DNA of 64,000 nt from a virus. Shown here in pieces: positions 667-41,989 of this stretch. Each line of letters begins with the position of its first letter. Position 1 is the first letter of the stretch. Where the stretch lies: IMG/VR virus record IMGVR_UViG_3300022744_000001, positions 2,022-66,021 of that record. One strand, given 5' to 3'. A program made the translations under genes and the position numbers. A model generated the notes under the pieces. It was not told the origin of the DNA, did not search any database, and saw only the letters and a program-made list of their open reading frames with translations.

Positions 667-668
667 AT

Positions 669-5558: not shown

Positions 5559-5574
5559 TGGTGTCACCCACGGC

Positions 5575-5979: not shown

Positions 5980-5983
5980 AACC

Positions 5984-6124
5984 ATGGAAAAGATTCGAAA
6001 CCCCTACGCGAGCGCAATGGCCCGCCGCTATGGGAAAACCACCAAGGTCATGAAAGACCGCCGCAAAGGACGCGGAGGTTCACGGAACAAGAAGCGGGAG
6101 ATCCTCCACGAGGCAGATCAGTAA
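5984..6124 (+). CDS. small basic protein (46 aa)
   Basis: ATG 5984 lies 5 nt after the upstream stop. Lys/Arg-rich: KDRRKGRGGSRNKKRE. Confidence 0.35.
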   Translation: MEKIRNPYASAMARRYGKTTKVMKDRRKGRGGSRNKKREILHEADQ

Positions 6125-6161
6125 TCCTGTTGTCCCCTATCTTGAACGGGAAGGTTTCACC

Positions 6162-6491: not shown

Positions 6492-6510
6492 CCCCGGTGT
6501 AGCCGTACTC

Positions 6511-11412: not shown

Positions 11413-11656
11413 TGGCCTTCACCTTATCGCGGTAGATTTCAGCACAACTGACACAGGTGTGGTCGAGGTGTTTCTCCGTGATCGGAACCTCAAGATCCCA
11501 ACCCTGCCCCGCCTTCGGGTGACCACAAAGAGCCGCGGTCTGGATGCCGCCCCCGAACTTGAGGGGCATGCCTTCCGAAACCGGTCGGATGTGCCAACGA
11601 GCCAACGGCCCCGCATGGATACTCTCACAGAAGGAGTAGGTAACCTTGTTCGACAC
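11399..11656 (-). CDS. hypothetical small Cys-containing protein (85 aa)
   Basis: Its stop overlaps the start of the helicase gene by 14 nt, consistent with an operon. Contains HTCVSCAEIY. No family recognised. Confidence 0.5.
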   Translation of the reverse strand: MSNKVTYSFCESIHAGPLARWHIRPVSEGMPLKFGGGIQTAALCGHPKAGQGWDLEVPITEKHLDHTCVSCAEIYRDKVKANGTP

Positions 11657-11701
11657 TTGAACCTCTACCCCTAGAACGTGCGAGCCCCAGAGAATCTATA
11701 C

Positions 11702-12523: not shown

Positions 12524-12578
12524 TTCCCAGACAAACTACTAGGTATTTGACTACCTGGCAATAGGGTAGACCGTAAAT

Positions 12579-24189: not shown

Positions 24190-27100
24190 TCAGGCCGGTA
24201 CATGGGGCATGATCCACCAGTTGGTCCCGTCGCAAGCTGCATGGAATCCTTGGCGCCCAGATGCCCCGAATGCAACACCGGTAGTGGCCAAAGTTCCGTT
24301 GATGTTTCCGGAGCTGGATTTCAATGTGAAAGTGTTGCTATCCGTGGTGGTCTTCATGAGTGTAAGAGAGTGTCCACCGCTACTAGCAGGTGCAGGCAGC
24401 TGAATGTTTGCGATAGCTCCGCCTGATGTGTCGATCATAGTAAACGCGCCAGAAGACAGAGTTCCGCTGCCTCCGAGTGAGTCTACCTTTGAAAGAATGA
24501 TGGCTCCATACCCAACGCCGAACCCGGACCCGGGCCGACGCCCCACATAGAGGTCTACTGAGTTTGTGGTTAGAACTGCGGTGCCTGCTGCTGGGGCGAT
24601 AACCACTGCGCCGTGGTCGCCAGAGCCAGCAGGGGCGCCCGTGGTCAGCGTGATGTCTCCGCCGTTCTGGTTGCCGCCGACAGCCGAAGTTGCTGTGATG
24701 TTGACCGCGCCGCCGACCCCAGAAGTGGCTGTGGTGCCCGCAGAGATATTTACGGTGCCACCAACACCATTGGCGTTGTTGGCGCCTCGGACCGTGACCG
24801 AGCCAGCGGTTCCAGACCCGGTTGAGACACCGCCTGCGATAGTGATGCTTCCACCATTTTGGTTGCTTCCAGCAGCTGCACCCGCGGTAACGACGATGGC
24901 GCCACCTGTGCCTGAACCGCTAGCAGCACCAGCAGTGATAGTGACTTGGCCGCCAGCCCCCGAGGTTGAACCGCCAGCCCCCGCAAGGAGCAGAGCAGTA
25001 CCTCCGCTACCTGTAGCGCCTCCAGCTCCCGCACGAAGGGACGCGCCACCTCCCCCAGAAGAGCCTCGGCTGCTGCCTGCGGTGAAACTGATATCTCCAC
25101 CGGCGCCGGACGTAGCAGAAGCATTCGCGCTGCCTCCTGTAGCGGTGAAGCTACCGCCGTTGCCGCTACCAGTGCCGCCGGTACCTCCAGTGAAGGTAAA
25201 GGAACCGCCGACACCAGTTTGACCAGCTCCACTCGAGGCCGCTCCCGCGTTGAATGTGAAGCTTCCGCCGTTGTTGGCGCTCAAGCTTCCACCGCTGCCG
25301 CCAGTGAAAGTGATCGAACCGCCAGAGCCGCTCGATGTGCTGCCACAAGTGAGGGCGATGGAGCCACCAGCACCCGATGTTGAAGCGCCCGCAGTGATTT
25401 GAAGGGCTCCGCCAGCACCAGAGGTAGAACCGCCCACGCCTGAGAACAGCTGGAGAACAGCACCTGCTCCCGTTGCGCCCGAGGTACCGGGTTGAACCAG
25501 AAGGGCGCCCGCCGCCGAAGCACCGAAACCATCACCGGTTCGAATCGTGGTGGTTCCGCCAACCGCCGACGAACCGCCAGAGACGGCATCCGCCCCCTTG
25601 ATGGTTACAGAGCCTGCTGTGCCGCCGTTAGTCGGGGAGCCACCCGTGATGGTGATTGCACCACCAGCTTGAGTGGTACCTACGCCCGCTCCGCCCGTGA
25701 TGGAGAGGGCTCCGCCAGCACCAGACGTCGTAGCTGCACCACCCTGGAGAGAAAGGGTGCCTCCAGCTCCAGAAGTGGCACCACCAGGACCGCCTTTGAC
25801 GACTACCGAGCCGCCCGTGTTGGTACCTCCAGGAGTGCCGCCTTGGATGGTGACTGTGCCACCGTTACCCGCGGCAAGAGAGGTGCCTCCGTTGATGTTG
25901 AGGGCACCACCAGCACCGGTCAGGCCCCCGGTACCTCCCTGTGCTGTCAGGGAGTACCCAGTTCCAGCTCCGACAAGATCGGCAGGTTTGATAGTCGGGG
26001 AGGTGCCAGTGGTAACAACCACCCCGCTATCAATCAATGCTGTAGCCGCCGAGCTACTCCAGACGGGGACCCCGTTGGTGTTCCCAGAACCTGGGCCTGT
26101 GACCCCGCCCCCACCTCCGGTTCCTCCAAGAGGGAGCACTCGCCACGCGTTGCTGGTGTAGTCCCGCACTAGCAACGCCGCAGAACCACCAGTCAGGGAG
26201 TAATCGGTTGCCGAAGGGCAAATAAGCCGATTGAATGCAGACGATCCAGCATCTTGGTGTTTGAGGGTCAGTGTCGTACTGGAGCGGTTTACAAGGAAAC
26301 GCTGTGAGTAGGACAGGTCGAGGTCAGTGTCGCGGAAGAAGCCCGTAACGGTTGCACCCGAAGTGACCGCATCAAAAAAGATCGTCCGCGCAAAACGCCA
26401 CTTGTAGATGTCTCCAAGCTTGTAGTCGTTGTTGGTGCCGCTGACCGAGACCGACGCGGTCTGCTCGATGGAGGGGTAAGTGAAAAGGTTGTCACTCGTC
26501 CCGCCAAAGTTGTTGTTCGCGAACTTCGAAGCGTTGTTGTTCGTTGCGTCGGTAGTGACAGGATTGTTGAACAACACGATTGAGGCCGGGGCACCGTCGT
26601 CAACCAAGTACCCAGAGGTTCCGACGTTCGCGTTGAAGATCTGAAGGTACCCTCCGTTGGTAATGAATGGGTACCCTGTGATACCTGCCAACCAAGTGCT
26701 TGCTGGGAATTCACAATAGACGTCGAGCGATCCGCCATTGCCTGCATTAATCCACGAAGACGTTGCGGCCCCATCGGTGTAGAGCTGGGAAAATCTCCCC
26801 AAGGTAATCGAGGGGTAATCGCTGGGGCTCATCGTATAGAGGGCCCCAGACGTCTTGTGGTTGACCATCACTACGTTTTCGATTCGACGAGGCAGCTTAA
26901 CGATGACCGCGGGGTCATAGAAGTTCATGACCGCTGTGCCGAGAGGATCTGTTGACGAGCGGCCAACGATCTCACAGTCCGTGAAGTCAAAGGAGTTGCT
27001 ACCGCTAAGGGGTACATTCGTAAGCAGCGTGATTCGACACGGGCCAGGGTGCCTTGCTGCAAGAAGCAGAGCCATGTCGTTATACGTGTTGCCCGAAGGT

Positions 27101-27192
27101 GAGGCTCCCGAGTCAAACACGAAGTCAGCCACCACGATTTCCTCGAAGGTGTGCCCAGCGGCGCTCGACAAAACTGGATAGCGATTCGACAT
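24190..27192 (-). CDS. glycine-rich repeat fibre/tailspike-like protein (1000 aa)
   Basis: A ~370-aa non-repetitive N-terminal region is followed by ~500 aa of degenerate GGxG/GAGG repeats (for example GGTGGLTGAGGALNINGGTSLAAGNGGTVTIQGG). The C-terminal domain is distinct. Confidence 0.65.
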   Translation of the reverse strand: MSNRYPVLSSAAGHTFEEIVVADFVFDSGASPSGNTYNDMALLLAARHPGPCRITLLTNVPLSGSNSFDFTDCEIVGRSSTDPLGTAVMNFYDPAVIVKLPRRIENVVMVNHKTSGALYTMSPSDYPSITLGRFSQLYTDGAATSSWINAGNGGSLDVYCEFPASTWLAGITGYPFITNGGYLQIFNANVGTSGYLVDDGAPASIVLFNNPVTTDATNNNASKFANNNFGGTSDNLFTYPSIEQTASVSVSGTNNDYKLGDIYKWRFARTIFFDAVTSGATVTGFFRDTDLDLSYSQRFLVNRSSTTLTLKHQDAGSSAFNRLICPSATDYSLTGGSAALLVRDYTSNAWRVLPLGGTGGGGGVTGPGSGNTNGVPVWSSSAATALIDSGVVVTTGTSPTIKPADLVGAGTGYSLTAQGGTGGLTGAGGALNINGGTSLAAGNGGTVTIQGGTPGGTNTGGSVVVKGGPGGATSGAGGTLSLQGGAATTSGAGGALSITGGAGVGTTQAGGAITITGGSPTNGGTAGSVTIKGADAVSGGSSAVGGTTTIRTGDGFGASAAGALLVQPGTSGATGAGAVLQLFSGVGGSTSGAGGALQITAGASTSGAGGSIALTCGSTSSGSGGSITFTGGSGGSLSANNGGSFTFNAGAASSGAGQTGVGGSFTFTGGTGGTGSGNGGSFTATGGSANASATSGAGGDISFTAGSSRGSSGGGGASLRAGAGGATGSGGTALLLAGAGGSTSGAGGQVTITAGAASGSGTGGAIVVTAGAAAGSNQNGGSITIAGGVSTGSGTAGSVTVRGANNANGVGGTVNISAGTTATSGVGGAVNITATSAVGGNQNGGDITLTTGAPAGSGDHGAVVIAPAAGTAVLTTNSVDLYVGRRPGSGFGVGYGAIILSKVDSLGGSGTLSSGAFTMIDTSGGAIANIQLPAPASSGGHSLTLMKTTTDSNTFTLKSSSGNINGTLATTGVAFGASGRQGFHAACDGTNWWIMPHVPA

Positions 27193-27320
27193 GGTCCCTC
27201 AACTGGAAAACAGCTGCTACCCAAGGCTGGTTTGACAGTAGTTTATTGGGGGCTTTCGCTAACCCTTCAAGCTTCGATAAGCCTCTCATGTAGAGCGCTA
27301 GGCATGAAGGTGCGGTACCC

Positions 27321-28517
27321 ATGACTGCCTCAGCTATCTGCCAGGTCCAAGACGGCGCTGGGCCGTTCCTGACCCCTACCAACGGCCTCGACGTCACTCA
27401 AGGCAATACAGTCTCGATCACGCTCGCTTCAACGACTGACGTGTCTGTTTGGACGCTTCAGATCTTTGGCGTGGATGAAGTCACAGCGACGGCTCCAACG
27501 CTTTCAGGGGTAGACCCGGACACGCACCAAGTCACGACCCCAGGGACAACCGTCACGTTCACGGTTCCGGCTGGGGCGGGCATCGGTCGAGCGTTCCTCA
27601 TTCGCTCTTCCGTGAATGGTGGTGGGTCGAGCCTCACCACGACTTTCGGGCTGTACACGCTGACGTCTTCTGGGCGACGGGTTGGCGCAGTCGGAGAGCG
27701 CTTTGAAGGCAACAACCTTTTCGGGTGGGCCTCGACGGTCAACTCCATCATCCGTGCCGGTGGCGGGGGTGGCGGACTCCCTCCGTTGGCGGGGGTGCAG
27801 TACGCAGTTTTGATGGAAGACCCAGTCGGGGTCCTCACCTTCCAGCAACTGACTCAGAACATGATTGCCCCGGCTTTCGCGATTGCGTCTTTCGCGAAAA
27901 CCGCCCCCAGCGGTTCCGCAACCTTGGTTCGCCGCGGGCAGCTGCTCTCAGGTCTCACAGCAGCCGCGACCTACACTTCCGGGCCCCCAACCTCGGCGAG
28001 CATCGCCAACACGTTAGGGGGCAGCTCAGACGTCGGGGACAACCCCCCGGGGCCTTGGACGATCAACGCCCCTTACGCCACGGCTTCCATGTCTGGGGCG
28101 ATCAGGCGGATCGGTTCTGACCTTGGGTTGAACCCAACCTGGACCTTCACTCTGACCGCCACGAAAAACGCACTCTCGGTTCAGAGCGGCGTGACCGTCA
28201 CATGGACCCGAGACGTGTACTGGGGCGTCGGCCCGGCTGGCTTTTCCACAGAAGCGGACATCGTGGGGTTGGCGGGTAGCACGCTTCAAGTCGGGCGAAA
28301 CCGCATCATCACGGTGAGCCCCTCGAACGAGAAAGTCTACTACGCCTACCCCAAGGCAGATGGCCTCGCCACATTCACTTTGAACAACTTCCCAGCCTCG
28401 TTCCTGGCTCCGGTCGAGGTGCAAGTCACCAACGTCAACAGCGTGACGAGCACCTACTACCTCTACGAGTCAACGAACCTCCTCACCGGTTCCAACCTCA
28501 ACTTCGTGGTGACGTGA
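27321..28517 (+). CDS. structural-like hypothetical protein (398 aa)
   Basis: Divergent from the fibre gene. Thr/Ser/Gly-rich, beta-like composition. Translationally coupled (TGACATG) to the next fibre-like gene. Confidence 0.55.
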   Translation: MTASAICQVQDGAGPFLTPTNGLDVTQGNTVSITLASTTDVSVWTLQIFGVDEVTATAPTLSGVDPDTHQVTTPGTTVTFTVPAGAGIGRAFLIRSSVNGGGSSLTTTFGLYTLTSSGRRVGAVGERFEGNNLFGWASTVNSIIRAGGGGGGLPPLAGVQYAVLMEDPVGVLTFQQLTQNMIAPAFAIASFAKTAPSGSATLVRRGQLLSGLTAAATYTSGPPTSASIANTLGGSSDVGDNPPGPWTINAPYATASMSGAIRRIGSDLGLNPTWTFTLTATKNALSVQSGVTVTWTRDVYWGVGPAGFSTEADIVGLAGSTLQVGRNRIITVSPSNEKVYYAYPKADGLATFTLNNFPASFLAPVEVQVTNVNSVTSTYYLYESTNLLTGSNLNFVVT

Positions 28518-28518
28518 C

Positions 28519-29820
28519 ATGGCCATCGGGTTAACTGACATTCTCGTTGCGCTTGGCAACTTCCCGCTGCTCGAGGACATCTTCTTGAAGGGGGGTTTTC
28601 GGGCGGTAGATAACCCCGAAGCGAGAGACGACATTGACCCCAGCATGCAGAAAAGCGGGATGCTCGTTTGGGTGGAGTCCGAAGGGAAGCTCTACCAAAT
28701 GGCAGAAGGGTGGGTTGAGGTCTCTCTTGGGCCAGGCAACGGCTCTACTAACACAGTCCCCGTTTGGTCAAACCCCTCGAACACTCTGGCAAACAGCACA
28801 GATTCGATCGGGGCGGTTAGGTTAGGCTCAAGTGCCGGACAAAACATCATCGTACAACCCACAGCATCCCTTGATGCTGGAGGTGCGAACGTAGAGGTCA
28901 ACGGAGGGGCGGGCGGGCCGACTTCCAATGGAGGTTATGCCTTACTTTACGGCGGTGCTGGTGGGGAGACATCTGGAGATGGCGGCAACGCCTATGTGGC
29001 AGCAGGCGATGCGACCACCGAGGGTCACGGCGGGTACGTTACAATCAATGGTGGTTATGCCGAAGGCACTGACAAAAACGGCGGAAGTGTTCATCTTGAA
29101 GGCGGGCTCCCAACTGGACTCGGGTCACCTGGGAGTATATCGCTCCAAGCGGCGGGCAACACTTCAACAGTTGGCGGCAACGTTGTCCTTAGTGTTGGAG
29201 AGGGCTCGTCCGCCGCTAATGATGGTACCGTACTAATTGCTACCGTAGGAAACTCCAGTCGCGCAGCCCGTCTTCAGTTCCTTGGGAGTAACACTAACCC
29301 CATCAGCATCAAAGCCCCGGCAACGGTCACCACCTACGAGATGACGCTTCCTAGCTCCCAAGGCGGAGCAGGTACCGTTCTGACCAACGATGGTAGCGGC
29401 GGTTTGACTTGGTCCGCTGGTGGCGGAGGCATGGGGGACTATCAGATTAACGCTTCTGTAACGTCCCCTGACGCCACTCCCTTGACGGTTCACACTTACA
29501 CGGACCCAGTGAACACTGATCGTGCCATTATTTGCTATGACATTTTAGCGACGGCGATTGGGCCTTTCGGGAACCGCTACGCGTCGTTCAAAATCAATGC
29601 AGTGTTCGAAATGGACGCCATTTCCGAAGTGATCCACCCTCGAGAAGTCACATACCTAAACGGCCCTGTTCGGACAAACCCCGCTTGGAATGTGCAGTTT
29701 GACATCGTGGGGGCTGACATCAATCTTCAAGTGGTTGGCGAGTCCAATGGTACCGAAGGAACACGATGGCGGATCGTCGGGTTCATTACTCGCAGCGGCT
29801 TCACGTTCTCCGAGGCGTGA
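28519..29820 (+). CDS. glycine-rich tail-fibre-like protein (433 aa)
   Basis: GGAGGPTSNGGYALLYGGAGGETSGDGGNAYVAAGD repeats resemble those in 24190..27192. Also contains ISIKAPATVTTYEMTLPSSQGGAGTVLTNDGSGGLTWS. Confidence 0.6.
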   Translation: MAIGLTDILVALGNFPLLEDIFLKGGFRAVDNPEARDDIDPSMQKSGMLVWVESEGKLYQMAEGWVEVSLGPGNGSTNTVPVWSNPSNTLANSTDSIGAVRLGSSAGQNIIVQPTASLDAGGANVEVNGGAGGPTSNGGYALLYGGAGGETSGDGGNAYVAAGDATTEGHGGYVTINGGYAEGTDKNGGSVHLEGGLPTGLGSPGSISLQAAGNTSTVGGNVVLSVGEGSSAANDGTVLIATVGNSSRAARLQFLGSNTNPISIKAPATVTTYEMTLPSSQGGAGTVLTNDGSGGLTWSAGGGGMGDYQINASVTSPDATPLTVHTYTDPVNTDRAIICYDILATAIGPFGNRYASFKINAVFEMDAISEVIHPREVTYLNGPVRTNPAWNVQFDIVGADINLQVVGESNGTEGTRWRIVGFITRSGFTFSEA

Positions 29821-30262
29821 TGAGCTTCGATAGCACGTCGAGGAATCCGACGTTGTAGAGCGCGTTGGGTCGTCGCTCCTGGACGACCCGAATGCACTCC
29901 TCCCCGGTCATGCCCGTGAGCATGTGCAAGGCCAGGGCACTCACGAGCCCACTACGGTTCCACCCCATCTGGCAGGTGACCAGCACCGGTCTCTTGGCTT
30001 GGAGGGCCAGGGTGACGCCCCGAGCCCCCTTTACAGCGATGTGCAGCTCCCGCTCCGTGATGGGGCGCTCTTGGTCCTCGTTTGGGGCGTAGATGACCTC
30101 GAGCCCAGGGAACCGCTTCTCCGGGGGCTGGTTCTCTTTGGCGCAGAGAACGAGCACCTTGAACCCCACGGAAGCCAAGTAGCTCCCCTCGGGGGGCTTG
30201 GAGCCTTGCCAGAGGCCAGGGTGGATTTCGTTGACATCGAGCCCTGCGGGGTAAACCTTCAT
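29801..30262 (-). CDS. dual-specificity/tyrosine-type protein phosphatase (CX5R)
   Basis: Active-site loop VLVTCQMGWNRSGLVSA fits C-X5-R-S. 153 aa. Confidence 0.7.
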   Translation of the reverse strand: MKVYPAGLDVNEIHPGLWQGSKPPEGSYLASVGFKVLVLCAKENQPPEKRFPGLEVIYAPNEDQERPITERELHIAVKGARGVTLALQAKRPVLVTCQMGWNRSGLVSALALHMLTGMTGEECIRVVQERRPNALYNVGFLDVLSKLITPRRT

Positions 30263-30290
30263 GCCTCAGTGACACCGGTATAGAAACTCC

Positions 30291-30319
30291 AGGGCTCCTG
30301 CGTTACCAGGGCAAGGAGA
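30291..30319 (+). promoter_or_regulatory. conserved upstream motif, copy 1
   Basis: AGGGCTCCTGCGTTACCAGGGCAAGGAGA sits immediately 5' of ATG 30327. It shares GGGCTC..GCGTTACCAGGGCAAGGA with 35163-35193. Confidence 0.5.
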
Positions 30320-30326
30320 ACGAGCC

Positions 30327-30584
30327 ATGTCGAAGTGTCAAGCCGGAACCCACATCACCATCGAACGCGACGGTCGCGAAATCGACGTCCTGGTCAACGG
30401 GTTCGTCATCCTGGAAGAGGGTCAGGTTGTTGATGCGGAGTTCACCGACGCCCACGACGACAACGGCGAGATCAAGCTCACCGAGAGCGAAATCGATACC
30501 GCTACCGACGAACTGATGGGCTCCTATGACAACCATCTCGAGGACGGGGAGGAGTTCCCGGAGCATGGCTACGACCACGACTGA
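30327..30584 (+). CDS. small acidic protein (85 aa)
   Basis: ATG lies 8 nt after AAGGAG. Highly acidic. Confidence 0.55.
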   Translation: MSKCQAGTHITIERDGREIDVLVNGFVILEEGQVVDAEFTDAHDDNGEIKLTESEIDTATDELMGSYDNHLEDGEEFPEHGYDHD

Positions 30585-30695
30585 GGGTTTGTTTTAGGTA
30601 GACGATCGCAGGCATTCTGGAGTACAACATCCAGACTGATCTTTTGTGACATCCCTGTGTCAGACCATGCGCAACATATAGCGCCGCTGACCATG

Positions 30696-30721
30696 AGGCT
30701 CTACTACTCCTAGTAGAGCCT
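30696..30721 (+). terminator. 11-bp hairpin
   Basis: AGGCTCTACTA-ctcc-TAGTAGAGCCT, about 110 nt downstream of 30327..30584. Confidence 0.35.
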
Positions 30722-30742
30722 GTAAATTCGTTACGTCAAGGG

Positions 30743-30771
30743 TTGACGCGTTACAAAATGCGGGATACGTT
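30743..30771 (+). promoter_or_regulatory. sigma-70-like promoter
   Basis: TTGACG, a 17-nt spacer, then TACGTT. The -35 context TTGACGCGT recurs at 63150. Confidence 0.4.
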
Positions 30772-30777
30772 GCGGGT

Positions 30778-30874
30778 ACTTTCCAAGGTTCATTGCCACC
30801 TTGAAGCGCAAGCCCCCAACTCCAAAACCCCCGGAAAGTGAAAGCGGCTGACCCCCTCAGCCGCTTTCGTCTTT
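30778..30874 (+). ncRNA. candidate small RNA (promoter to terminator, ~95 nt)
   Basis: Downstream of the promoter: hairpin CAAGGT-N8-ACCTTG (30784-30803), the C-rich stretch CCCCCAACTCCAAAACCCCC, then AAAGCGGCTGA-ccccc-TCAGCCGCTTT followed by CGTCTTT (30841-30874). No ORF. Confidence 0.3.
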
Positions 30875-31156
30875 ATGCATGCAGGGGAAGCAAATCCGGT
30901 AGGTCGTGAACCGGCCATTGAGCGGGCGATACGCTTCTCCTTTGGCAGGGATGGCTCTCGCGCACAAGCAGCACTCCCAAGGCTTTTTGGTGATGGTCCG
31001 GGCCCAGAGGACTCGGACAGTGCAGCCCTCGACGGTCAGGTTGGAGAGGTAGGAGGTCCCGGGGAGGAACTCCTTCTTGTTCGTGATTGAGACCACAGAG
31101 TAGGTTTGGCACAGAACCGGTGTCAGTGTCACCGATGCGTGATGCCCCCGCCCCAC
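30857..31156 (-). CDS. hypothetical Cys-rich protein (start uncertain)
   Basis: 99-aa ORF containing CCLCARAIP...CFPCMH. Its N-terminal ~20 nt overlap the divergent ARH gene, so an internal start is possible. Confidence 0.35.
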   Translation of the reverse strand: MGRGHHASVTLTPVLCQTYSVVSITNKKEFLPGTSYLSNLTVEGCTVRVLWARTITKKPWECCLCARAIPAKGEAYRPLNGRFTTYRICFPCMHKDESG

Positions 31157-32049
31157 TTCTTGGTCAAGCCATCGCTGATGCCCTGGGTATGCCGTTCGAG
31201 TTGTGTGGTCCCGAAGATCCCAAGTTGAAGGACTGGGATGGGCAGACCTACCACTCGAGCGAGTACCACAAGCTCATGCCAGGGCAGTGGTCCGACGACA
31301 CGATGATGGCCAAGCTCCTGGCCGAAAGCCTTCTCCAGGTGGGCGGGTATGACCCGGAGAACGCAGCCAAACGCTACCTGGGTTGGTACAAGAGCGGGGA
31401 CCACCGGGGGATGGGGACGGCGACCAGGACCGCCCTCGGTCGCCTGGACGAGGGCAAGGATTGGTCGGAGTCCGGAGTCGAGAACGCCCAGGGGAACGGG
31501 ACCGCCATGAGGGCGATCCCTCTCGGGGTTTTCTTCCGGAACCGTCTCGACCTCCTCGTCGAGGCTGCAAGCTTGGACTCTCACATCACCCATCGGTCGG
31601 ACGAGGCTGAGGAGGGGGCGATCGCAATCGCCCTGGCTGCCGCATACCTCTACCGTGGCCTCCCGAAGGATGAGCTTCCAGAGGCTATCTCGAGGCGGCT
31701 CAAAGACGGCCCCATCAAGACCGGAGTCATGAAGTGCGAGTTCTACCTTCGCACCGGCGGAGTCTCGGTTGGGGAAGCACTCCGAGTCATTGGCACGAAA
31801 CCCCACGTGGTCCAGACCGTGCCCGCTGCCCTGGCCGCGTTCCTTTTGTCCAAGACCTACCTGGAGGCTGTCCAAGCTGCGATTCGGGCCGGGGGCGATA
31901 CGGACACCACAGCCGCCATCGCCGGTGGCCTGGCGGGCATCTACTACGGTCGCCAAGCCATCCCCGCGGACCTCATCCCTCCGCTCGAGGCCGCAGACGC
32001 CCTCAGTGGGCTCGACTTCCAACTCAACACCCCTGCCCGTGAACTCTGA
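31135..32049 (+). CDS. ADP-ribosylglycohydrolase (DraG/ARH family)
   Basis: GQAIADALGMPFE, QWSDDTMM, GNGTAMRAIPLG and GGDTDTTAAIAGGLAG blocks. ATG 31135 chosen within the track ORF that starts at 31087. Confidence 0.85.
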   Translation: MRDAPAPLLGQAIADALGMPFELCGPEDPKLKDWDGQTYHSSEYHKLMPGQWSDDTMMAKLLAESLLQVGGYDPENAAKRYLGWYKSGDHRGMGTATRTALGRLDEGKDWSESGVENAQGNGTAMRAIPLGVFFRNRLDLLVEAASLDSHITHRSDEAEEGAIAIALAAAYLYRGLPKDELPEAISRRLKDGPIKTGVMKCEFYLRTGGVSVGEALRVIGTKPHVVQTVPAALAAFLLSKTYLEAVQAAIRAGGDTDTTAAIAGGLAGIYYGRQAIPADLIPPLEAADALSGLDFQLNTPAREL

Positions 32050-32062
32050 GACCCTCCGCTGC

Positions 32063-32290
32063 ATGGGGCTGGGGATTTGCCCCCAGTGCAAAGGGCCAGC
32101 TCGGAATGAGCCACCCTCGGGCTACTTCTGGTGTCCAAAGTGCAAGCGAATTCTTTGGCATTTGCGCCGGATAGCGGCTACCACTGCCAAATCGGAGGGT
32201 TCGGGGGATGCTGGAAGACAACAAGCTGAGGATTTTCGAGAGGTTCTCGGTAGACAAGGAGCTTCCGAAGTTCCAAAAGCCGAAGGGTGA
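32063..32290 (+). CDS. possible small zinc-ribbon protein
   Basis: ATG 32063. CPQCKG...CPKCKR. The 3' third overlaps the next gene, so its extent is uncertain. Confidence 0.3.
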   Translation: MGLGICPQCKGPARNEPPSGYFWCPKCKRILWHLRRIAATTAKSEGSGDAGRQQAEDFREVLGRQGASEVPKAEG

Positions 32291-33047
32291 GAACGTAGAA
32301 CTCGTTCGAGCGGACGGGTCCACGGACCACGCCGTGATTTACGAGTTTGCGATCGACCTGGTCAATAGAGGCTGGACAGAGGGCATCGAAATCACGGAAG
32401 CCGTCGCGGACCGGATTACGTTGCGGGGCCGAGTCAAAGGGTTTCGTGGCTGGCTCCGGAAGCTGCTCCATTGGGTCACCCAGAGGCCGAGCATCACCAT
32501 CCCTCAGTTCTTCACCCTCGTGAAGGGTTCCGTGAAGGACCTCGAGATCGTGGAGGCGCGTGCCAAGGGGTACGAGGAGGCCATCTCCAACGCCCGCAAG
32601 TTCGGCCAGAAAGCCCTCGTTGAGGAGCTGACACAGAACCTGGTTGCGGTCCGGCTCGAGGCGCACTTGGTCACGATGGGGCTGACCAAGTACCTGACCG
32701 AGGACAAGCTCGTCGAATTCGTGAAGCTGTGCCCGAAGGGGCTCCGGCTCGACTGGATCGCGAACTTTGGGCGTCGCATCCCCACAGAGCTGCTCGAGCG
32801 CAAGCTCGCCTGCGACGAACGGTTCCTCTTCGACAACTACGTCATCCTCCACTACGACCCCAAAGGCAAGAGCTGGAAGGAAACGGAAGCCGAGAAGGCC
32901 GCCCGCAAAGACCCGATCCTCTTCGGGGTCATGAAGGGGCGCCGCCAGCTCTACTACCTCGGGGACTGGGTCGATGAGCTTTGCGACCTCACGCTCGACC
33001 AGATTGCAGATACGATTGGGAAGAGTGCGATCGGGGAGCTGAAATAA
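32208..33047 (+). CDS. hypothetical protein (279 aa)
   Basis: ATG ORF with TAA stop and good coding-like composition. No family recognised. Confidence 0.6.
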   Translation: MLEDNKLRIFERFSVDKELPKFQKPKGENVELVRADGSTDHAVIYEFAIDLVNRGWTEGIEITEAVADRITLRGRVKGFRGWLRKLLHWVTQRPSITIPQFFTLVKGSVKDLEIVEARAKGYEEAISNARKFGQKALVEELTQNLVAVRLEAHLVTMGLTKYLTEDKLVEFVKLCPKGLRLDWIANFGRRIPTELLERKLACDERFLFDNYVILHYDPKGKSWKETEAEKAARKDPILFGVMKGRRQLYYLGDWVDELCDLTLDQIADTIGKSAIGELK

Positions 33048-33051
33048 CCCA

Positions 33052-33729
33052 GTGGACAGTAGCGCAGAAGAGTTTGAGCAGATAGTGCGCGAGAGTTTAT
33101 CCGCTGCACAAGCCCTACGAAAACTGGACCGGGCTACCGTGGGGTCCAACTACGACTGGGTGCGTCGGGAGGTTCAACGGTTTGGGCTCGACACATCTCA
33201 CTGGGGAAGAGCTGGTGCTCGCAATACAACCCCGAACCTCGATGAGGTTTTCATTGAGAATGGTGCCTACTCAACAGGTCTTGTTAAGACGATCATTCTT
33301 CGTGAACGTTTACTCCCGGAGCTGTGTGCTGAGTGTGGATTAGGACCCTCCTGGAGGGGTAAGAAATTAGTCCTCCGCCTTGACCACAAAAACGGGAAAC
33401 GAAGTGATCACCGGCTCGGAAACTTGCGTTTTCTGTGTCCGAACTGCGACTCTCAAACAGAGACATTTTGCGGTCGCAACAAACGTCTCCCAGCCAAGCT
33501 GTGTAAATGCGGGGTGGCAATAGGGCAGCAGTCCGCAGCTTGCAGGTCGTGCACGGCAAAAAGCAGAAAACCAACAACGAAAATCGTTTGGCCTCCATTC
33601 GAGGAAGTGCAGGAAAGGGTCAAAAACACCTCCTTCCTTGCCACAGCCAAACATCTTGGTGTATCAGATAATGCAGTTCGGAAGTTTTTACGCTCCCGTG
33701 CCCGAGTGGTTGAAGGGGCAGGATTCTAA
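33052..33729 (+). CDS. HNH homing-endonuclease-like protein
   Basis: LRLDHKNGKRSDHRLGNLRFLCPNCDSQ is an HNH core. N-terminal ...GLDTSHWGR and C-terminal LGVSDNAVRKFL are HTH-like. Visibly lower GC than the flanks. The last 38 nt overlap the tRNA. Confidence 0.75.
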   Translation: MDSSAEEFEQIVRESLSAAQALRKLDRATVGSNYDWVRREVQRFGLDTSHWGRAGARNTTPNLDEVFIENGAYSTGLVKTIILRERLLPELCAECGLGPSWRGKKLVLRLDHKNGKRSDHRLGNLRFLCPNCDSQTETFCGRNKRLPAKLCKCGVAIGQQSAACRSCTAKSRKPTTKIVWPPFEEVQERVKNTSFLATAKHLGVSDNAVRKFLRSRARVVEGAGF

Positions 33730-33783
33730 ATCCTTGGGGCCGCAAGGCCCACGCCGCAGGTTCGAACCCTGCCGGGAGCGCCA
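33692..33783 (+). tRNA. suppressor tRNA, anticodon CUA (reads UAG), serine-type architecture
   Basis: 92 nt: GCUCCCG-UG-CCC-GAGUGGUUGAA-GGG-G-CAGGA-UUCUAAA-UCCUU-[20-nt variable arm G-GGGCC-GCAA-GGCCC-ACGCC]-GCAGG-UUCGAAC-CCUGC-CGGGAGC-G-CCA. The acceptor and T stems pair perfectly. Confidence 0.8.
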
Positions 33784-33784
33784 G

Positions 33785-34111
33785 TCAAGAGCGTAAAGCG
33801 AGAGGAAGCCGCTGAACAAGTCGTTTTGCGGCGGGCTCGAGCGCGATGGCGGTCACCTCGTTGTCTCGGTCCGGCTCCCGAAACAAGCTGACCCTGAACC
33901 CTCGACGGGTCGCATCCTCCGCGAGACGAGTCAGGGAAGGCTCATCAGGGCTCTCGAGGAGAGCGAGGTAGTTCGACTGCTCGAACCACTCCCGCTCGAC
34001 CTCCGGGTGCTCCGCGACGAACCCTCGCATGGCGTGAGCTGCTTGGACAGCTTGCGCGCCAAGAGGGAGGTCGCTTCGGACAATGAGGTAGAGTTTGTCA
34101 CCCATCCTCAT
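33785..34111 (-). CDS. Pth2-like peptidyl-tRNA hydrolase family protein
   Basis: 108 aa. KLYLIVRSDLPLGAQAVQAAHA... and ...NEVTAIALEP follow the PTH2 pattern (vvR.DL...aQ..HA ... T.lai.P). Confidence 0.6.
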   Translation of the reverse strand: MRMGDKLYLIVRSDLPLGAQAVQAAHAMRGFVAEHPEVEREWFEQSNYLALLESPDEPSLTRLAEDATRRGFRVSLFREPDRDNEVTAIALEPAAKRLVQRLPLALRS

Positions 34112-34535
34112 CGTCGGTACCTTCCTCGTCTTCGTCGTCGCTCAGGTGCAACCCAACCCTGTGAATGACCTCCTCTGGAATCCCGGCCGCCCGGAGCTTC
34201 CCGTCCCAGTCAGCGTAGGGGCGGTCCCCGCCACCCCACTTGCGCTCGCCCACGAAGAACATGGGAGGGTCACTGTGGATTTTCCCGTGAGGGGTCTCAA
34301 CGTAGGGCCAGATCTCCAAGGGCGAGTCGTTGCAGCACCCGCAGTTGTGCCGCATGTCGAACTTGGTCACCTGGCTGTTCACTGAGGCTGAGCAGTAGGC
34401 GACCTTGTTCCAGCGGCCGACATGCTTGCGCAGATCAGGGTAGAGTTCGGCCAGTTTGGCCAACCTCTCCGCTTCCTGGTCCTTTGCCCGGGCTTCCCCC
34501 CGGGCTTGTTGGATCTCTTCAGCGATGGTACCCAT
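34098..34535 (-). CDS. hypothetical protein (145 aa)
   Basis: ATG ORF with a coiled-coil-like N-terminus, a CGCC motif and an acidic tail. Overlaps the next gene by 14 nt. Confidence 0.55.
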   Translation of the reverse strand: MGTIAEEIQQARGEARAKDQEAERLAKLAELYPDLRKHVGRWNKVAYCSASVNSQVTKFDMRHNCGCCNDSPLEIWPYVETPHGKIHSDPPMFFVGERKWGGGDRPYADWDGKLRAAGIPEEVIHRVGLHLSDDEDEEGTDDEDG

Positions 34536-34538
34536 GGC

Positions 34539-34991
34539 TCAGGCCGCCTTCCGCTCAAACTTCGGGCGGAGACCCGCAAGCCACATACCGATGTCGTCCT
34601 CGGAGATAGCGGCTCCGCCCCCGAAGCTCTGGAGAAGGCTGTGGAGCGCTCGAGGGCTCAAGACCTCCGCGGTCGTTCGCTCGATTTGGACATACTCGAG
34701 GCCCCGGAGCATTCCGAGCAGCACCAGGTGCAGTCGGATCCAGTACCGGCCATCCCGCTTCTGGTCCCACAGGCGAGACCGGTCGTAACCGGTCTCGGGG
34801 CGGCGGTAGGGTTTGAGGGCTCGTTTGCCGTTGACCCTCCTACCATCCTCACCCCGCTGGGAGCGGAGGGTGGCGATGGCGTCGGCCGACCCGGGCGTCC
34901 AAGCCAGCTCTTGGAGCTGGCGGCGGATCCCCATCTGGGCGTCGGTCAGGGTCTTGAGTTCAGTGCGCAGCTTCTTGATAGTTTCCTTCAT
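34539..34991 (-). CDS. hypothetical protein (150 aa)
   Basis: ATG preceded by GGAGGAAATC on the reverse strand. No family recognised. Confidence 0.55.
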   Translation of the reverse strand: MKETIKKLRTELKTLTDAQMGIRRQLQELAWTPGSADAIATLRSQRGEDGRRVNGKRALKPYRRPETGYDRSRLWDQKRDGRYWIRLHLVLLGMLRGLEYVQIERTTAEVLSPRALHSLLQSFGGGAAISEDDIGMWLAGLRPKFERKAA

Positions 34992-35162
34992 GATTTCCTC
35001 CAGTTCGCGTTGTGTTCAGGTCGATGACGAGACTGAACGGCGCGTGGAGGACCACGAGGAGCGTGCGCTAAAGGATGTAGCTAGTGACCCATGACTTCCA
35101 TCCTAAACACCGGACCGCGGGGGTCAAGAGGGGAAATTCGATCTGGTCGGTTTAGGCTCGAG

Positions 35163-36461: not shown

Positions 36462-36956
36462 ATGATCAAGTACCTCAAGGGCGACGCTACCGAACCCCAG
36501 GGCGCCGGAACCAAGTTCATCATCCACGTGGTCAACGACCGAGGCGGTTGGGGCGCAGGTTTCGTTTTGGCCCTCTCCCGCAAGTGGAAGGGGCCCGAGC
36601 AGTCGTATCGGAAGTACAGCCCACTCACTCTCGGCCAGATTCAGGTGGTGCCCGTCGAGCGACATCCGGGAGGCGTCCCGTACCTCTACGTCGTGAATAT
36701 GTGTGCCCAAACGGGGTACGGCCGCGGCAACCGGAACCTCCACCGTACCAACGAACCCGACGACCAGATCCCGTTGCGGTACGACGCCCTCCAGACGTGT
36801 CTTGAGCAAGTTGCAGAAGAGGCCACTGTCCTCGGCGCTGCAATCCACGCTCCTCGGTTCGGGTGCGGGCTCGCCGGGGGAAAGTGGGAGCTTGTCGAGC
36901 CCATCATTCAAAGTGCCCTTGAAGACCTTCCCGTTTTCATCTACGACCTGCCGTGA
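36462..36956 (+). CDS. macro-domain protein (ADP-ribose binding/hydrolase type)
   Basis: FIIHVVNDRGGWGAGFVLALSRKW... and ...APRFGCGLAGGKWELVEPII fit the viral/phage macro-like pattern. Confidence 0.7.
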   Translation: MIKYLKGDATEPQGAGTKFIIHVVNDRGGWGAGFVLALSRKWKGPEQSYRKYSPLTLGQIQVVPVERHPGGVPYLYVVNMCAQTGYGRGNRNLHRTNEPDDQIPLRYDALQTCLEQVAEEATVLGAAIHAPRFGCGLAGGKWELVEPIIQSALEDLPVFIYDLP

Positions 36957-37355: not shown

Positions 37356-37838
37356 ATGCGACCTGCTACGCGAGAGGGTTGGAAGATCATCTCTATCACG
37401 GCTCACCGAACGTTGACCGGGCAAGACCGAACGTTCATCCGAGCTGGGATGAAGCTGCTGGTACAAAACCCCACCGTCGATGCGATCTACGTCGGGGGCG
37501 CTCGAGGGGGAGATACGATCGCGCTCCAAGCCGCCGCAGAGTTCCGAAAGGGCTCGAGGCCGCAGTTGGTTGTCGTCTGTCCCGACACAGAGGCGGCCCA
37601 ACCTTTTCAGGCCCGCCAATGGTTTCACTTGGCTGACGAGGTCATCGAGCTTGGAAACCCCATCACTCGAGAGGACGGCTTTGAGTCCTACCGCATCCGC
37701 AACAAGTACCTTGTTGATCACTGCACCACTCTCGTCGCCTTCTACAACGGAGACAAAGACACGGGCACCGGGCATGCCGTCCAGTATGCCGAGTCTCTCG
37801 GTGTTGTTGTCCGTACAGTCCCGATTGTCGGAAGGTAA
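37356..37838 (+). CDS. SLOG-fold protein (DUF2493/YpsA-like)
   Basis: IYVGGARGGDTIALQAAAE, YRIRNKYLV and LVAFYNGDKDTGTGHAVQYAESLGVVV follow the GGA.GaD ... RN ... GT pattern of DUF2493. Confidence 0.6.
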   Translation: MRPATREGWKIISITAHRTLTGQDRTFIRAGMKLLVQNPTVDAIYVGGARGGDTIALQAAAEFRKGSRPQLVVVCPDTEAAQPFQARQWFHLADEVIELGNPITREDGFESYRIRNKYLVDHCTTLVAFYNGDKDTGTGHAVQYAESLGVVVRTVPIVGR

Positions 37839-37841: not shown

Positions 37842-38243
37842 ATGCTCACAGCTATCCTGCTCCTCTGCATCGCCATCGTTGCCATGGTGGGCGTTCTGAT
37901 CTTCGAAACGGCCAACCTCCGAGGGGCGTTCCACGAGATGCAGAAAGCTCTCCAAGACGCCGTTCGAACGAGTGAAGAACTCGACGCGAAGGAGGACGAA
38001 GAGGGGGATCAGCTCGAGATTGAATGGCGAGACAGGTTCAACGAGATGCAAGACACGCTGAACCGCCTCGAGTTGAACCTGGGGCGGGTCAATCAGCGTG
38101 TGGCCCGGCTACAAGCCAAGTCAAAGGCGGGCAGCACGAAGAAGAAGGCCAAGTTCGACCTCATCCAAGGGGGCCAGAAGAACCCCCAAGAGGAGCGTCC
38201 GCAGGTGATTCAGCTTCACCCTGAGCCTCGAGACCCAAGCTGA
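37842..38243 (+). CDS. membrane-anchored coiled-coil protein
   Basis: N-terminal TM segment MLTAILLLCIAIVAMVGVLIF followed by a charged helical region. Confidence 0.55.
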   Translation: MLTAILLLCIAIVAMVGVLIFETANLRGAFHEMQKALQDAVRTSEELDAKEDEEGDQLEIEWRDRFNEMQDTLNRLELNLGRVNQRVARLQAKSKAGSTKKKAKFDLIQGGQKNPQEERPQVIQLHPEPRDPS

Positions 38244-39036
38244 AAATCTTGCTCACTTGGGGGTTGCCGTAATCAGAATGCCCCGTGTAGACGGTGAGGT
38301 TTTCAAAATGCTTGTACTCCCCCGGTGAGTGCGTGTGCCCGCAGAGCACGGTGAACTTGACCTCGGGGAACAGGGACGCGACGTCCGCCAACATGGCGCC
38401 GAACGTGAGGTTCGTGAACCACGGGAGCCAGTTCTTGTCGGAGATGCGGTCCCGGTAAAAGCAGGACTCCCGAAAGGGCGGGATGTGCGTTGCAAAGAAA
38501 ACCTGCTTGTACTTCCGAGCCGCGGCGACGAGGTTCGGCCGAGCTTCCTCAGCCATTTGCTTGGCCACCTCCCTGCACTTTTCGATGTGCCCGTATCGCT
38601 CCTTGTCTCGAAACTCCTCGATGACCTTGAAGTCGTTCATGATGACGTTCGACCCTTCGGGGTCCCCCGAACGAGCGTCGTACCAACCCCCGTGGCCAAC
38701 GAGCGCGATTTCCGGAGTCAGCTCCACGACGCCCGCGGCGTTCAGCCAGGAGAGGTTCTTCACGGCTTGGCTGTCATGGAGAACCTGTGCGATCAGGCGA
38801 CCCTTCTCGAGAGAGCCGTTATAGAAGTCGTGGTTTCCGAGCACGAAATAAACGGGGATCTCAACCTTCGATGCGAACAAGACCAGGTTGAAGGCGAGTG
38901 AGGGGCACTCCGCGATATCCCCGGTCATCACGATGGCGTCCGCTTGGGTCAGTCTGCGAACGTACTTCGCGAACTTCGCGGTACCCGCGGGAGGTAGGAA
39001 ATTGAAATGGGGGTCCGTGATCCAGGCGAGGCGCAT
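38161..39036 (-). CDS. calcineurin-like metallophosphoesterase
   Basis: WITDPHFN, VMTGDIAE, VLGNHDF, GHGGW and LCGHTHSPG motifs. The 3' ~80 nt overlap the convergent gene. Confidence 0.8.
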   Translation of the reverse strand: MRLAWITDPHFNFLPPAGTAKFAKYVRRLTQADAIVMTGDIAECPSLAFNLVLFASKVEIPVYFVLGNHDFYNGSLEKGRLIAQVLHDSQAVKNLSWLNAAGVVELTPEIALVGHGGWYDARSGDPEGSNVIMNDFKVIEEFRDKERYGHIEKCREVAKQMAEEARPNLVAAARKYKQVFFATHIPPFRESCFYRDRISDKNWLPWFTNLTFGAMLADVASLFPEVKFTVLCGHTHSPGEYKHFENLTVYTGHSDYGNPQVSKIFSLGLEAQGEAESPADAPLGGSSGPLG

Positions 39037-41840: not shown

Positions 41841-41989
41841 ACAGCCCTTTGTTCAAGCACTCCGCGAAATACTGCACTCACTGCCAGAAAAACTCGAGGG
41901 AGCAGGTTCACTACCAGCGAGGCTTCAACAAGGGTGTGCACTGGCAATGCAAGATCTGTGGGAGAAAGTCCGTGCGTTGCTCTAAGTGA
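41837..41989 (+). CDS. small zinc-ribbon protein (50 aa)
   Basis: ATGA overlap with the upstream gene. CTHCQ...CKICG. Confidence 0.45.
   Translation: MNSPLFKHSAKYCTHCQKNSREQVHYQRGFNKGVHWQCKICGRKSVRCSK

Follow-up and report, generated by a model that had tools for sequence, protein, structure and literature searches.

The window analyzed here, a 64,000-nt stretch of the virus record IMGVR_UViG_3300022744_000001 (positions 2,022 to 66,021 of that record), contains two divergently transcribed genes that are the subject of this study, one for a cysteine phosphatase of the dual-specificity phosphatase (DSP) fold and the other for an ADP-ribosylhydrolase (ARH) of the ARH/DraG fold. The G+C content of the window is 59.8%. 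It carries 12 tRNA genes, tail-fiber/baseplate-like genes, an HNH endonuclease gene, and many open reading frames (ORFs) that match PHROG alone. Exact window proteins were found on the 448,224-bp metagenomic contig ena:ERZ27252002:k141_47206, and the relatives of the DSP and ARH proteins are encoded on IMG/VR viral contigs, mostly of 200–530 kb. The source of the window is most likely a huge phage; this status follows from the listing of these related contigs as viral by IMG/VR and not from a capsid or terminase gene in the window. Related loci are denoted by L-numbers (L006, L008, L091–L249, and others), L006 being the closest relative, and their ORFs were called mechanically. The baseplate assignment comes from a weak T4_gp9_10_N match seen in the L006 homolog. 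The IMG/VR relatives were recovered by alignment-based scans, and single-protein scans of IMG/VR gave nothing.

ADP-ribosylhydrolase gene

The ARH protein (304 aa; 31135..32049, plus strand) scored 246.5 bits with Pfam PF03747 ADP_ribosyl_GH, for which the cut-off is 26.2 (E = 5.7e-73), and its residues 8–279 span profile positions 3–287 of 287. The start codon at 31135 is backed by the N-terminus MRD..APLLGQAIADALGMPFE, which is kept in L006. The metal-binding motif GGDTDTTAAIAGG (G253–G265), read from the sequence, is encoded at 31891..31929 (plus strand). Among 47 ARH relatives, E22, D54, D55, H153, D255, T256, and D257 are invariant, as are G253 and G254, and T56 and T258 are kept in at least 90%. 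This residue set covers the N-terminal Glu, the TH motif, and, in S/T-D-D-T and G-G-D-T-D-T, the acidic residues that coordinate the binuclear Mg/Mn site. The AlphaFold model was of high confidence (pLDDT 96.2, pTM 0.94), and its all-helical ARH fold was matched in Foldseek by MJ1187 (template modeling (TM) score 0.87) and the Thermus thermophilus ARH, followed by ARH3, Lmo0067, Tri1, and DraG (TM range 0.79–0.87). By the alignment ranges (query 52–175 versus 2foz chain 59–188), D54/D55 fall on the ARH3 pair D77/D78, and the ARH3 counterparts of the DxDT residues are D314/D316/T317. The enzyme looks catalytically complete, with a full binuclear-metal active site.

The best matches, MJ1187 (1t5j) and the T. 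thermophilus ARH-related protein (2cwc/2yzv), were found with E values of 2e-28 to 4e-28, 30–32% identity, and TM scores of 0.79–0.87. They have the same length, all-helical fold, and acidic metal ligands as the phage ARH. However, both are of cellular origin, and the phage proteins form a clade of their own, with at least 38% identity among those of huge phages versus at most 39% to bacteria among the matches listed. We know of no established physiological substrate for either protein. DraG and human ARH3/ARH1 belong to the same superfamily (~23% identity), but the phage ARH has no DraT or nitrogenase context.

Tri1 (Serratia, 6dre) and Lmo0067 (Listeria, 8za7) share the ARH fold and the catalytic residues, and they enzymatically detoxify an ADP-ribosylating toxin. 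These immunity proteins, together with DraG, are among the neighbors of the phage ARH in structure and sequence. They bring up the possibility that it is an antidote or timer for an ADP-ribosyltransferase (ART) encoded elsewhere in the 448-kb genome, as in the DraT/DraG, Tre1/Tri1, and Aeromonas-phage ART–ARG pairs, and restrains or undoes the modification of host proteins by the phage itself. ARTs occur widely among large phages, some of which have ART–ARG pairs (PMC9503650). The survey for partner genes used precomputed Pfam annotation of record positions 324,362–400,562, 76 kb of the 448 kb. No ART, sirtuin, or protein kinase family was found in these 76 kb, although divergent ARTs could escape such annotation, and none was present in the Pfam-annotated relatives L006 and L008; nif genes were likewise absent from the 76 kb by Pfam. 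The ART partner that had been sought for the two genes did not appear in this Pfam annotation of the 76 kb. The genes flanking the ARH gene are a zinc-ribbon gene and a 279-aa/HNH insertion, with no adjacent ART toxin gene, whereas both genes of the characterized pairs are adjacent. The scores are also far under the equivalog cut-offs (DraG, TIGR02662, 96.9 bits versus 337; Tri1, NF041672, 108.7 bits versus 490). The Tri1 match begins at profile position 73 of 361, and the phage ARH has no counterpart of the Tri1 N-terminal extension. A self-regulatory role of this kind appears improbable.

Phosphatase gene

The DSP gene (153 aa; 29801..30262, minus strand) overlaps at its 3' end a convergent tail-fiber-like gene (28519..29820) by 20 bp. 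The match of its product to Pfam PF00782 DSPc was marginal (37.9 bits versus a cut-off of 33.5, E = 1.9e-9), and several relatives score slightly under the cut-off; the protein also matches PHROG 10650 'dual specificity phosphatase'. The P-loop C97-Q-M-G-W-N-R103-S104 (CQMGWNRS, CX5R-S) is encoded at 29951..29974 (minus strand). In an alignment of 52 DSP relatives, D63, C97, G100, N102, R103, S104, and G105 are invariant, and the P-loop consensus of the family is LVTC-x2-G-x-NRSGLV. The general-acid Asp is expected ~30–35 residues before the Cys, a position that D63 fits, and D63 aligns with the general-acid Asp of PIPDF in the archaeal Tk-PTP and ShufPTP. The AlphaFold model built on this alignment was confident (pLDDT 95.4), and its best PDB folds in Foldseek were DUSP16, Tk-PTP, and DUSP8/28/23 (TM 0.71–0.78, about 0.75). 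In a viral structure library, the neighbors were DUSPs of eukaryotic giant viruses, poxviruses, and baculoviruses, with no phage protein among the named top matches. The DSP looks catalytically complete, with both the Cys-X5-Arg loop and the general-acid Asp.

The sequence-only reading had placed the P-loop CQMGWNRS in 29801..30262 and the full ARH/DraG motif set in 31135..32049. The former is upheld by Pfam DSPc, PHROG 10650, and the sequence, and the latter by the full-length ADP_ribosyl_GH match and the metal-binding motif. The catalytic residues are present on alignment of both families, and both models find their best matches in the expected families.

Tk-PTP (Thermococcus, 5z5a/b) and the atypical DUSPs (DUSP23/VHZ, DUSP28, and the catalytic domain of DUSP16) have the same minimal fold of ~150 aa, with C-X5-R-S and the Asp in the same places. 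Unlike them, the phage DSP has the sequence T-C-x2-G-x-N-R-S-G, where Thr takes the place of the His that precedes the Cys and the Arg follows an invariant Asn; an extra near-invariant Cys40 and the viral context also set it apart. An RNA 5'-triphosphatase was considered for the Asn before the Arg and was rejected on the motif and the fold ranking. The consensus of these enzymes (DUSP11/PIR1, BVP, and the metazoan capping enzyme) is HCTHGxNRT (PMC5785229), of which the DSP, reading T-C-Q-M-G-W-N-R-S, shares only G-x-N-R-S. No DUSP11, BVP, or capping enzyme was found within its top 50 PDB fold matches. PF22741, which covers DSP-type phosphatases fused to NAD kinase, gave a nonsignificant match to one DSP relative (E = 0.14). 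ARH and DSP are clear members of known superfamilies, and neither belongs to the DraG, Tri1, or RNA-triphosphatase subgroup.

Interval between the two genes

The DSP and ARH genes are 872 bp apart. The sequence-only reading had described a non-coding gap between them, but the interval is mostly coding: gene callers predict an acidic 85-aa gene (30327..30584, plus strand) and a previously overlooked 79-aa zinc-ribbon gene with CxxC...CxxC (30857..31096, minus strand), and the true intergenic DNA amounts to 272 bp (30585..30856). The acidic protein had no Pfam, PHROG, or PADLOC match and no homolog among the ORFs of 161 related loci (L006, L008, and L091–L249), and its gene is classed as lineage-specific. 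Its resemblance by eye to an acidic ORF in L094 was unconfirmed. The zinc-ribbon gene, which is divergent from the ARH gene, is conserved in L006 only, where an 81-aa counterpart (56% identical, phmmer 8e-25) occupies the same position. A 92-aa zinc-ribbon gene found ~2 kb upstream of ARH in 14 further huge-phage loci is apparently unrelated to this gene. The locus is thus built of two divergent pairs, DSP with the acidic gene and the zinc ribbon with ARH, which converge on a shared terminator region; it is not one operon.

The small acidic gene, hairpins, and small RNA (sRNA) candidate reported earlier between the two genes are all present. A perfect 11-bp hairpin, AGGCTCTACTA-ctcc-TAGTAGAGCCT, is seen in sequence and fold at 30696..30721, and the folding of the 296-nt intergenic RNA has a z score of -5.1. 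The sRNA-like unit (30743..30876, plus strand; putative RNA of ~100 nt at 30778..30876) is conserved in L006 (6770..6900, reverse strand). It starts with a promoter-like TTGACG-N17-TACGTT (30743..30771), continues with CUUUCC...CCCCCAACUCC...GGAAAG, of which CCCCCAACUCC is a C-rich segment, and ends with a 12-bp GC-rich terminator hairpin (30840..30868) followed by a U-rich tail. The minus-strand zinc-ribbon gene ends in the same region, its stop codon overlapping the terminator hairpin. L006 keeps all of these elements, with two compensatory stem changes in the hairpin, and the pattern was found only in these two phages. Rfam found no family in the intergenic region, and a σ70 consensus scan found no promoter at the scan thresholds and weak terminator matches.

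The recurring upstream motif seen in the first reading corresponds to the 12-mer TTACCAGGGCAA at 30303..30314 (plus strand), 13 nt upstream of the ATG of the acidic gene and followed by GGAG. It has three exact copies in the window (147, 30303, and 35175, plus strand). The copies at 30303 and 35175 have GCG before and GGA after them and lie 13–20 nt ahead of an ATG, and the 12-mer may be a shared 5'-leader or promoter element. The 9-mer CCGGTGTCA has three copies in the 64 kb versus 0.8 expected. Two of them (30270..30278, minus strand, and 31117..31125, plus strand) precede the start codons of DSP and ARH by 7 and 9 nt, respectively. It was not accepted as a sign of coregulation because a related element, (C)GGTGT[CA][AG], persists ahead of the ARH gene in four relatives (L006, L093, L095, and L124), whereas the DSP genes of relatives have no such element upstream.

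Distribution of the two families

ARH was found in ~42 viral loci (38–55% identity), on IMG/VR contigs mostly of 200–530 kb, and some genomes have two paralogs. In a bacterial scan with one genome per species, the best of 567 confirmed matches listed was 39% identical, on a 5-kb contig of a metagenome-assembled genome, and the rest listed were at most 36%. The DSP has ~35 viral loci at 35% identity or more, on contigs of a similar kind, and a full profile search at E ≤ 1e-30 resolved no fewer than 733 distinct clusters at 50% identity. By these searches, the DSP family is large and mostly unannotated and consists of stand-alone proteins of ~150 aa, and both families are common on huge-phage contigs, viral, and diverse. 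Among 50,697 GenBank phages, neither a near-identity DNA search with 27000..35000 nor tblastn with the DSP gave a match, and the best ARH was 38.8% identical (uncultured 485-kb phage LR745208.1). In the literature searched, no paper joined 'dual specificity phosphatase' with 'jumbo phage'.

Gene neighborhoods in related genomes

DSP and ARH are arranged head to head in nine genomes (the window, L006, L092, L094, L095, L118, L124, L130, and L176), at a spacing of 0.3–5.3 kb. In the subclade of the window, with ~50% protein identity, they belong to a syntenic block in the order DCD, PDF, p86, tail-fiber 398, (tail-fiber 433), DSP (minus strand), and a variable insert. Beyond the insert, the block continues with ARH (plus strand), suppressor tRNA, PTH2 (minus strand), p145, p150, macrodomain, SLOG-like, and later Nudix. 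The insert carries different cargo by genome: a GHKL-like ATPase in L006, L094, and L124, Ro60 in L092 and L095, and two small genes with the sRNA-like unit in the window. The GHKL-like proteins (441–488 aa, weak HATPase_c_3) are encoded at 7883..9349 (minus strand) in L006, 8133..9458 (plus strand) in L094, and 8220..9659 (plus strand) in L124. The Ro60 genes (TROVE/vWA_Ro60) lie directly upstream of ARH at 8163..9872 in L092, 8225..9862 in L093, and 8163..9848 in L095 (minus strand).

More compact arrangements were seen in other relatives. In L176 and L124/L173, the macrodomain gene follows ARH by 17–28 bp, and DSP is divergent just upstream. In L187 and L202, NadM-Nudix, NAMPT, DSP, macrodomain (4-bp overlap with DSP), PTH2, a tRNA-binding protein, and an HD_4 protein are encoded in this order on one strand. 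In 16–21 low-GC huge-phage loci, NadM-Nudix, NAMPT, zinc ribbon, DUF6939/NADAR-like, ARH, UvrD, PTH2, and Thg1 are codirectional. This array was seen in L096–L113, L115, L129, and L131, and its DUF6939-like protein (188 aa) has a weak NADAR-DarT1 match. On four contigs of this group, a second ARH paralog lies ~32–35 kb away, beside a CYTH protein. The window ARH groups by identity with the NAMPT-linked type (47–51% versus 39–44%). What seems to be new is that, in huge phages, this DSP family is repeatedly placed among genes for ARH, macrodomains, and NAD salvage.

ADP-ribose and NAD genes of the window

A macrodomain protein (164 aa; 36462..36956, plus strand) is encoded 4.4 kb from the ARH gene. 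By phmmer against the PDB, it is BT1257/SCO6735/TARG1-like (BT1257, 2afc, 5e-39; SCO6735, 5e3b, 1.4e-34; ALC1 macro, 9e-9; ADP-ribose-1''-phosphate phosphatase, 9e-5), and it matched phrog_335 (3.7e-27). Its Pfam Macro match was only 0.06, and it is blank in the precomputed Pfam annotation. In L124, L176, L187, and L202, the macrodomain gene directly adjoins ARH or DSP. Streptomyces coelicolor SCO6735 is a TARG1-like enzyme that acts on DNA with thymine-linked ADP-ribose and on RNA ADP-ribosylated at phosphate ends (PMC11833690). The window protein adds a second candidate ADP-ribose eraser to this conserved block. It is followed by a possible SLOG-like protein (37356..37838, plus strand), for which the matches are weak (Pfam YpsA SLOG 0.005, below the cut-off; phrog_289, 4e-8); the SLOG-like gene is directly after the macrodomain gene in L093 and L094. 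The window also encodes a calcineurin-like metallophosphoesterase (38161..39036, minus strand; Pfam Metallophos, phrog_1649). Two stand-alone NUDIX hydrolases of 134–138 aa (5575..5979, plus strand, Pfam NUDIX 6e-15; and 56844..57260, plus strand, Pfam) lie ~25 kb off on either side of the locus, and an NT5C nucleotidase and a nucleoside hydrolase are also encoded. Ro60, RtcB, NAMPT, and NadM were not found in the window or its flanks by tblastn/phmmer, and no WYL or Nudix-HTH repressor is present in the DSP–ARH locus. The theme of enzymes that erase modifications, proposed in the first reading for the phosphatase and ARH, is strengthened by the macrodomain and by relatives in which DSP, ARH, macrodomain, NAMPT, and NadM-Nudix genes stand side by side.

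Translation and RNA genes beside ARH

PTH2 peptidyl-tRNA hydrolase (33785..34111, minus strand; Pfam PTH2) is the most constant neighbor of this ARH clade, being within 10 kb of ARH in 28 of the 42 viral loci, and Thg1 is within this distance in 18. Between ARH and PTH2, the window has a suppressor tRNA with the anticodon CUA (33692..33783, plus strand; ARAGORN, Rfam tRNA 52 bits). A suppressor tRNA between the ARH 3' end and PTH2 is conserved in six related huge-phage genomes. Such CUA/UUA tRNAs by the ARH 3' end were located in L006 (5167..5241), L092 (10932..11004), L093 (10922..10994), L094 (10928..11004 and 11263..11336), and L095 (10915..11003, UUA). TAG recoding is not evident in the window, where the standard code gives a coding density of 89% and 16 of 50 well-behaved genes have TAG as their stop codon; it could be confined to genes elsewhere in the genome. 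Odd tRNAs with the anticodon 'ttca' (one 'tc') were reported in L187 and L202. The stretch 32208..33729 (plus strand), also between ARH and PTH2, encodes a 279-aa protein (PHROG 10081 'transposase', 1e-17) and a 225-aa HNH endonuclease (PHROG 10822, 5e-42), the ORF of which overlaps the suppressor tRNA at its 3' end. This pair looks like a mobile insertion because L006 lacks it there. In L251, RtcB, RlaP, thymidine kinase, and a DSP-family gene are found near a Ro60 gene (5145..6884), a set with an RNA-repair flavor.

These neighbors would fit an RNA/tRNA repair or translation module, in which the ARH strips ADP-ribose from RNA phosphate ends or translation components and the DSP trims RNA-end phosphates, alongside PTH2, the suppressor tRNA, Ro60, RtcB, and Thg1. 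In addition to the frequency of PTH2 and Thg1, the suppressor tRNA, the location of Ro60 between DSP and ARH in L092 and L095 and beside ARH in L093, and the proximity of a DSP to RtcB, Ro60, and RlaP in L251, ARH-like enzymes are reported to take ADP-ribose off RNA/DNA phosphate ends (PMC11833690), and the DSP P-loop has G-x-N-R-[ST] in common with RNA triphosphatases. However, the H-C-T-H part of the triphosphatase consensus is missing from this P-loop, the DSP retains the general-acid Asp, its best folds are protein DUSPs and not DUSP11 or capping enzymes, similarity searches gave no Ro60 or RtcB in the window, and the synteny with translation genes may be inherited order. We regard such a module as improbable.

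Proposed function of the two enzymes

Here, we propose that DSP and ARH, each transcribed on its own, belong to a toolkit for ADP-ribose/NAD+ conflict whose genes are loosely clustered in a huge phage, and that they are not a two-gene system, a reading to which we assign a probability of roughly 0.4. The conserved ADP-ribose/NAD gene block probably helps the virus to undo host defenses. The ARH, using two metal ions, would hydrolyze the C1'' bond between ADP-ribose and its acceptor on phage or host macromolecules, where the ADP-ribose would have been placed by ADP-ribosyltransferase-type defenses or toxins of the host, and the macrodomain would do the same job for other linkages. Alternatively, the ARH may act on ADP-ribose derivatives, and in either case free ADP-ribose would be released. 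The Nudix enzymes and phosphoesterases encoded nearby would then degrade or recycle it. The DSP would remove a phosphate via a thiophosphate (phospho-cysteine) intermediate on Cys97, with Asp63 as the general acid. Its likeliest substrate would be a phosphorylated ADP-ribose/NAD-type molecule or a nucleic-acid end, and a phosphoprotein is less likely. A substrate related to ADP-ribose or NAD is pointed to by the neighborhoods and by published precedent. Counter-defense is tentatively favored over self-regulation because no ART was found by Pfam in the surrounding 76 kb and because of the analogy with the proven phage enzymes AdfN and Adpp.

Several observations weigh against this linked toolkit. 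ARH occurs without DSP within 10 kb in ~35 loci and DSP without ARH in ~29 loci. L091 and L093 retain the block without DSP, whereas L174, L186, L187, L202, and L203 retain DSP and PTH2 without ARH. Since each gene also occurs without the other, DSP and ARH are not an obligate pair or a two-gene system, and by this point and their divergent transcription they are not a unit. The single commonest neighbor of DSP is an unrelated ~200-aa protein. The functional links rest on neighborhoods in related genomes, in which the counts are not independent, and the shared gene order may reflect inheritance rather than selection because the whole block DCD–PDF–tail fiber–DSP–ARH–PTH2 and onward is syntenic. 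PADLOC gave no match for the DSP, ARH, acidic, zinc-ribbon, or GHKL-like protein. Finally, the best fold neighbors of the DSP are small protein-directed DUSPs.

The last point leads to the explanation that the two genes are mere neighbors, the ARH being an ADP-ribose eraser and the DSP an ordinary protein Tyr/Ser/Thr phosphatase that would dephosphorylate proteins of the host or the phage and might, for example, dampen kinase signaling or a kinase-based defense, with an inherited adjacency and no functional link. Apart from the folds, which include the archaeal PTP, and the presence of the general-acid Asp, this explanation accords with divergent genes that each have their own start region, with the occurrence of each gene without the other in most relatives, with an interval that is an insertion hot spot for a GHKL-like ATPase, Ro60, or small genes, and with the constant adjacency of DSP to tail-fiber-like genes. 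However, the 76 kb contain no protein kinase by Pfam. The link of the phosphatase to kinase-based defense in the sequence-only reading found nothing in its favor, and the recurrent DSP neighbors are ADP-ribose/NAD genes, not kinases. In L187 and L202, DSP is wedged between NAMPT and the macrodomain gene with overlapping stop and start codons, L176 and L124 have a compact DSP–ARH–macrodomain trio, and in bacteria, Cys phosphatases are the commonest ARH partners (PMC9503650). Because the DSP fold most resembles those of protein DUSPs, our estimate for the linked toolkit is kept as modest as stated above, and an unlinked pair, though rather unlikely, is the alternative that we take most seriously.

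A more specific form of the toolkit can be put forward for the DSP family. Proteins with T-C-x2-G-x-N-R-S-G would be cysteine phosphatases for a phosphorylated ADP-ribose/NAD substrate (ADP-ribose-1''-phosphate, NADP(H), or ribose phosphate) and not protein phosphatases. Acting jointly with the two erasers, ARH and macrodomain, and also with NAMPT and NadM-Nudix in those phages that have them, they would restore NAD+ or detoxify ADP-ribose derivatives produced by host defense. This proposal is speculative, and we consider it quite unlikely as it stands.

Comparison with known systems

In bacterial ARH-centered neighborhoods, a Cys phosphatase is present in >55% of cases, and calcineurin-like phosphatases, Nudix, and Macro are also found; the phosphatases were proposed to process the released ADP-ribose (PMC9503650). 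In the ARG(ARH)-centered systems with phosphatases of the rhodanese-phosphatase superfamily (Iyer, Burroughs, Anantharaman, and Aravind 2022, PMC9503650, section 3.8), as in the phage, the ARH has no coupled ART and lies beside a Cys phosphatase, with a calcineurin-like phosphatase, Nudix, and Macro in the neighborhood. Those systems are host operons predicted to undo viral ADP-ribosylation, with the phosphatase tightly coupled to ARH by fusion or by adjacency in one operon, and with Nudix/WYL-HTH repressors and often chaperones or nucleases, whereas the phage genes are divergent, have up to 5 kb of cargo between them, and lack Nudix/WYL-HTH regulators. DNA viruses have fusions of SLOG, Macro, or NADAR domains with rhodanese phosphatases of a different clade. 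The same survey catalogued ARH domains in ~5% of jumbo phages and suggested that they act on macromolecular adducts (PMC9503650).

AdfN is a phage NADAR enzyme of counter-defense against DarTG1 (PMC11825919), and Adpp is a Macro-type ADP-ribose-1''-phosphate phosphatase of NARP1-AP that counters aRES (10.64898/2026.01.28.702374). Like the phage ARH and DSP, they are phage-encoded orphan hydrolases, and they reverse the product of a host NAD+-consuming defense; Adpp illustrates how the outcome can hinge on the dephosphorylation of an ADP-ribose derivative. Their folds are NADAR and Macro, whereas those described here are ARH and DSP, known from sequence and models.

Other genes of the window

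An array of 11 tRNAs (Arg ×2, Ala, Glu ×2, Thr, Asn ×2, Lys ×2, and Tyr) occupies 507..4239 (minus strand). The stretch 7612..14231 (minus strand) encodes a 1266-aa DUF6094 and SNF2-like helicase protein (PHROG 62; weak DpdE/BrxH/ZorD/DrmD matches), near which lies a 550-aa N6_N4 methyltransferase (12579..14231), with a 273-aa ORF between them. A diguanylate cyclase with three PAS domains and GGDEF (E = 8e-45) is encoded at 41982..43628 (minus strand), and a GAF-GGDEF protein lies ~8 kb past the right end of the window (L250, 1..716). Together, they suggest cyclic di-GMP signaling genes in a huge phage.

Biological implications

ADP-ribosylation and NAD+ depletion are central to bacterial immunity, as in DarTG, CmdTAC, Thoeris, SIR2/TIR, and RES systems, and the proven answers of phages so far are NADAR and Macro enzymes and NAD+ rebuilding pathways. 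To our knowledge, ARH-fold erasers of phages have so far only been catalogued. The present locus offers a well-defined huge-phage ARH clade that, by its sequence, appears catalytically intact, and a large family of small cysteine phosphatases that recurs among macrodomain, NAMPT, and NadM-Nudix genes. The natural arrangements, with DSP divergent from ARH followed by Macro, or NadM, NAMPT, DSP, and Macro in a row, guide the choice of substrates and defense systems. If the proposal for the DSP family is true, the DSP would be a cysteine-phosphatase analog of the Macro-type Adpp, which defeats RES-type NAD+ depletion, and the gene set would be a viral mirror image of the bacterial ARH–phosphatase systems. 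A phosphatase of this family that acts on ADP-ribose derivatives would be a new enzyme class in the NAD+ arms race.

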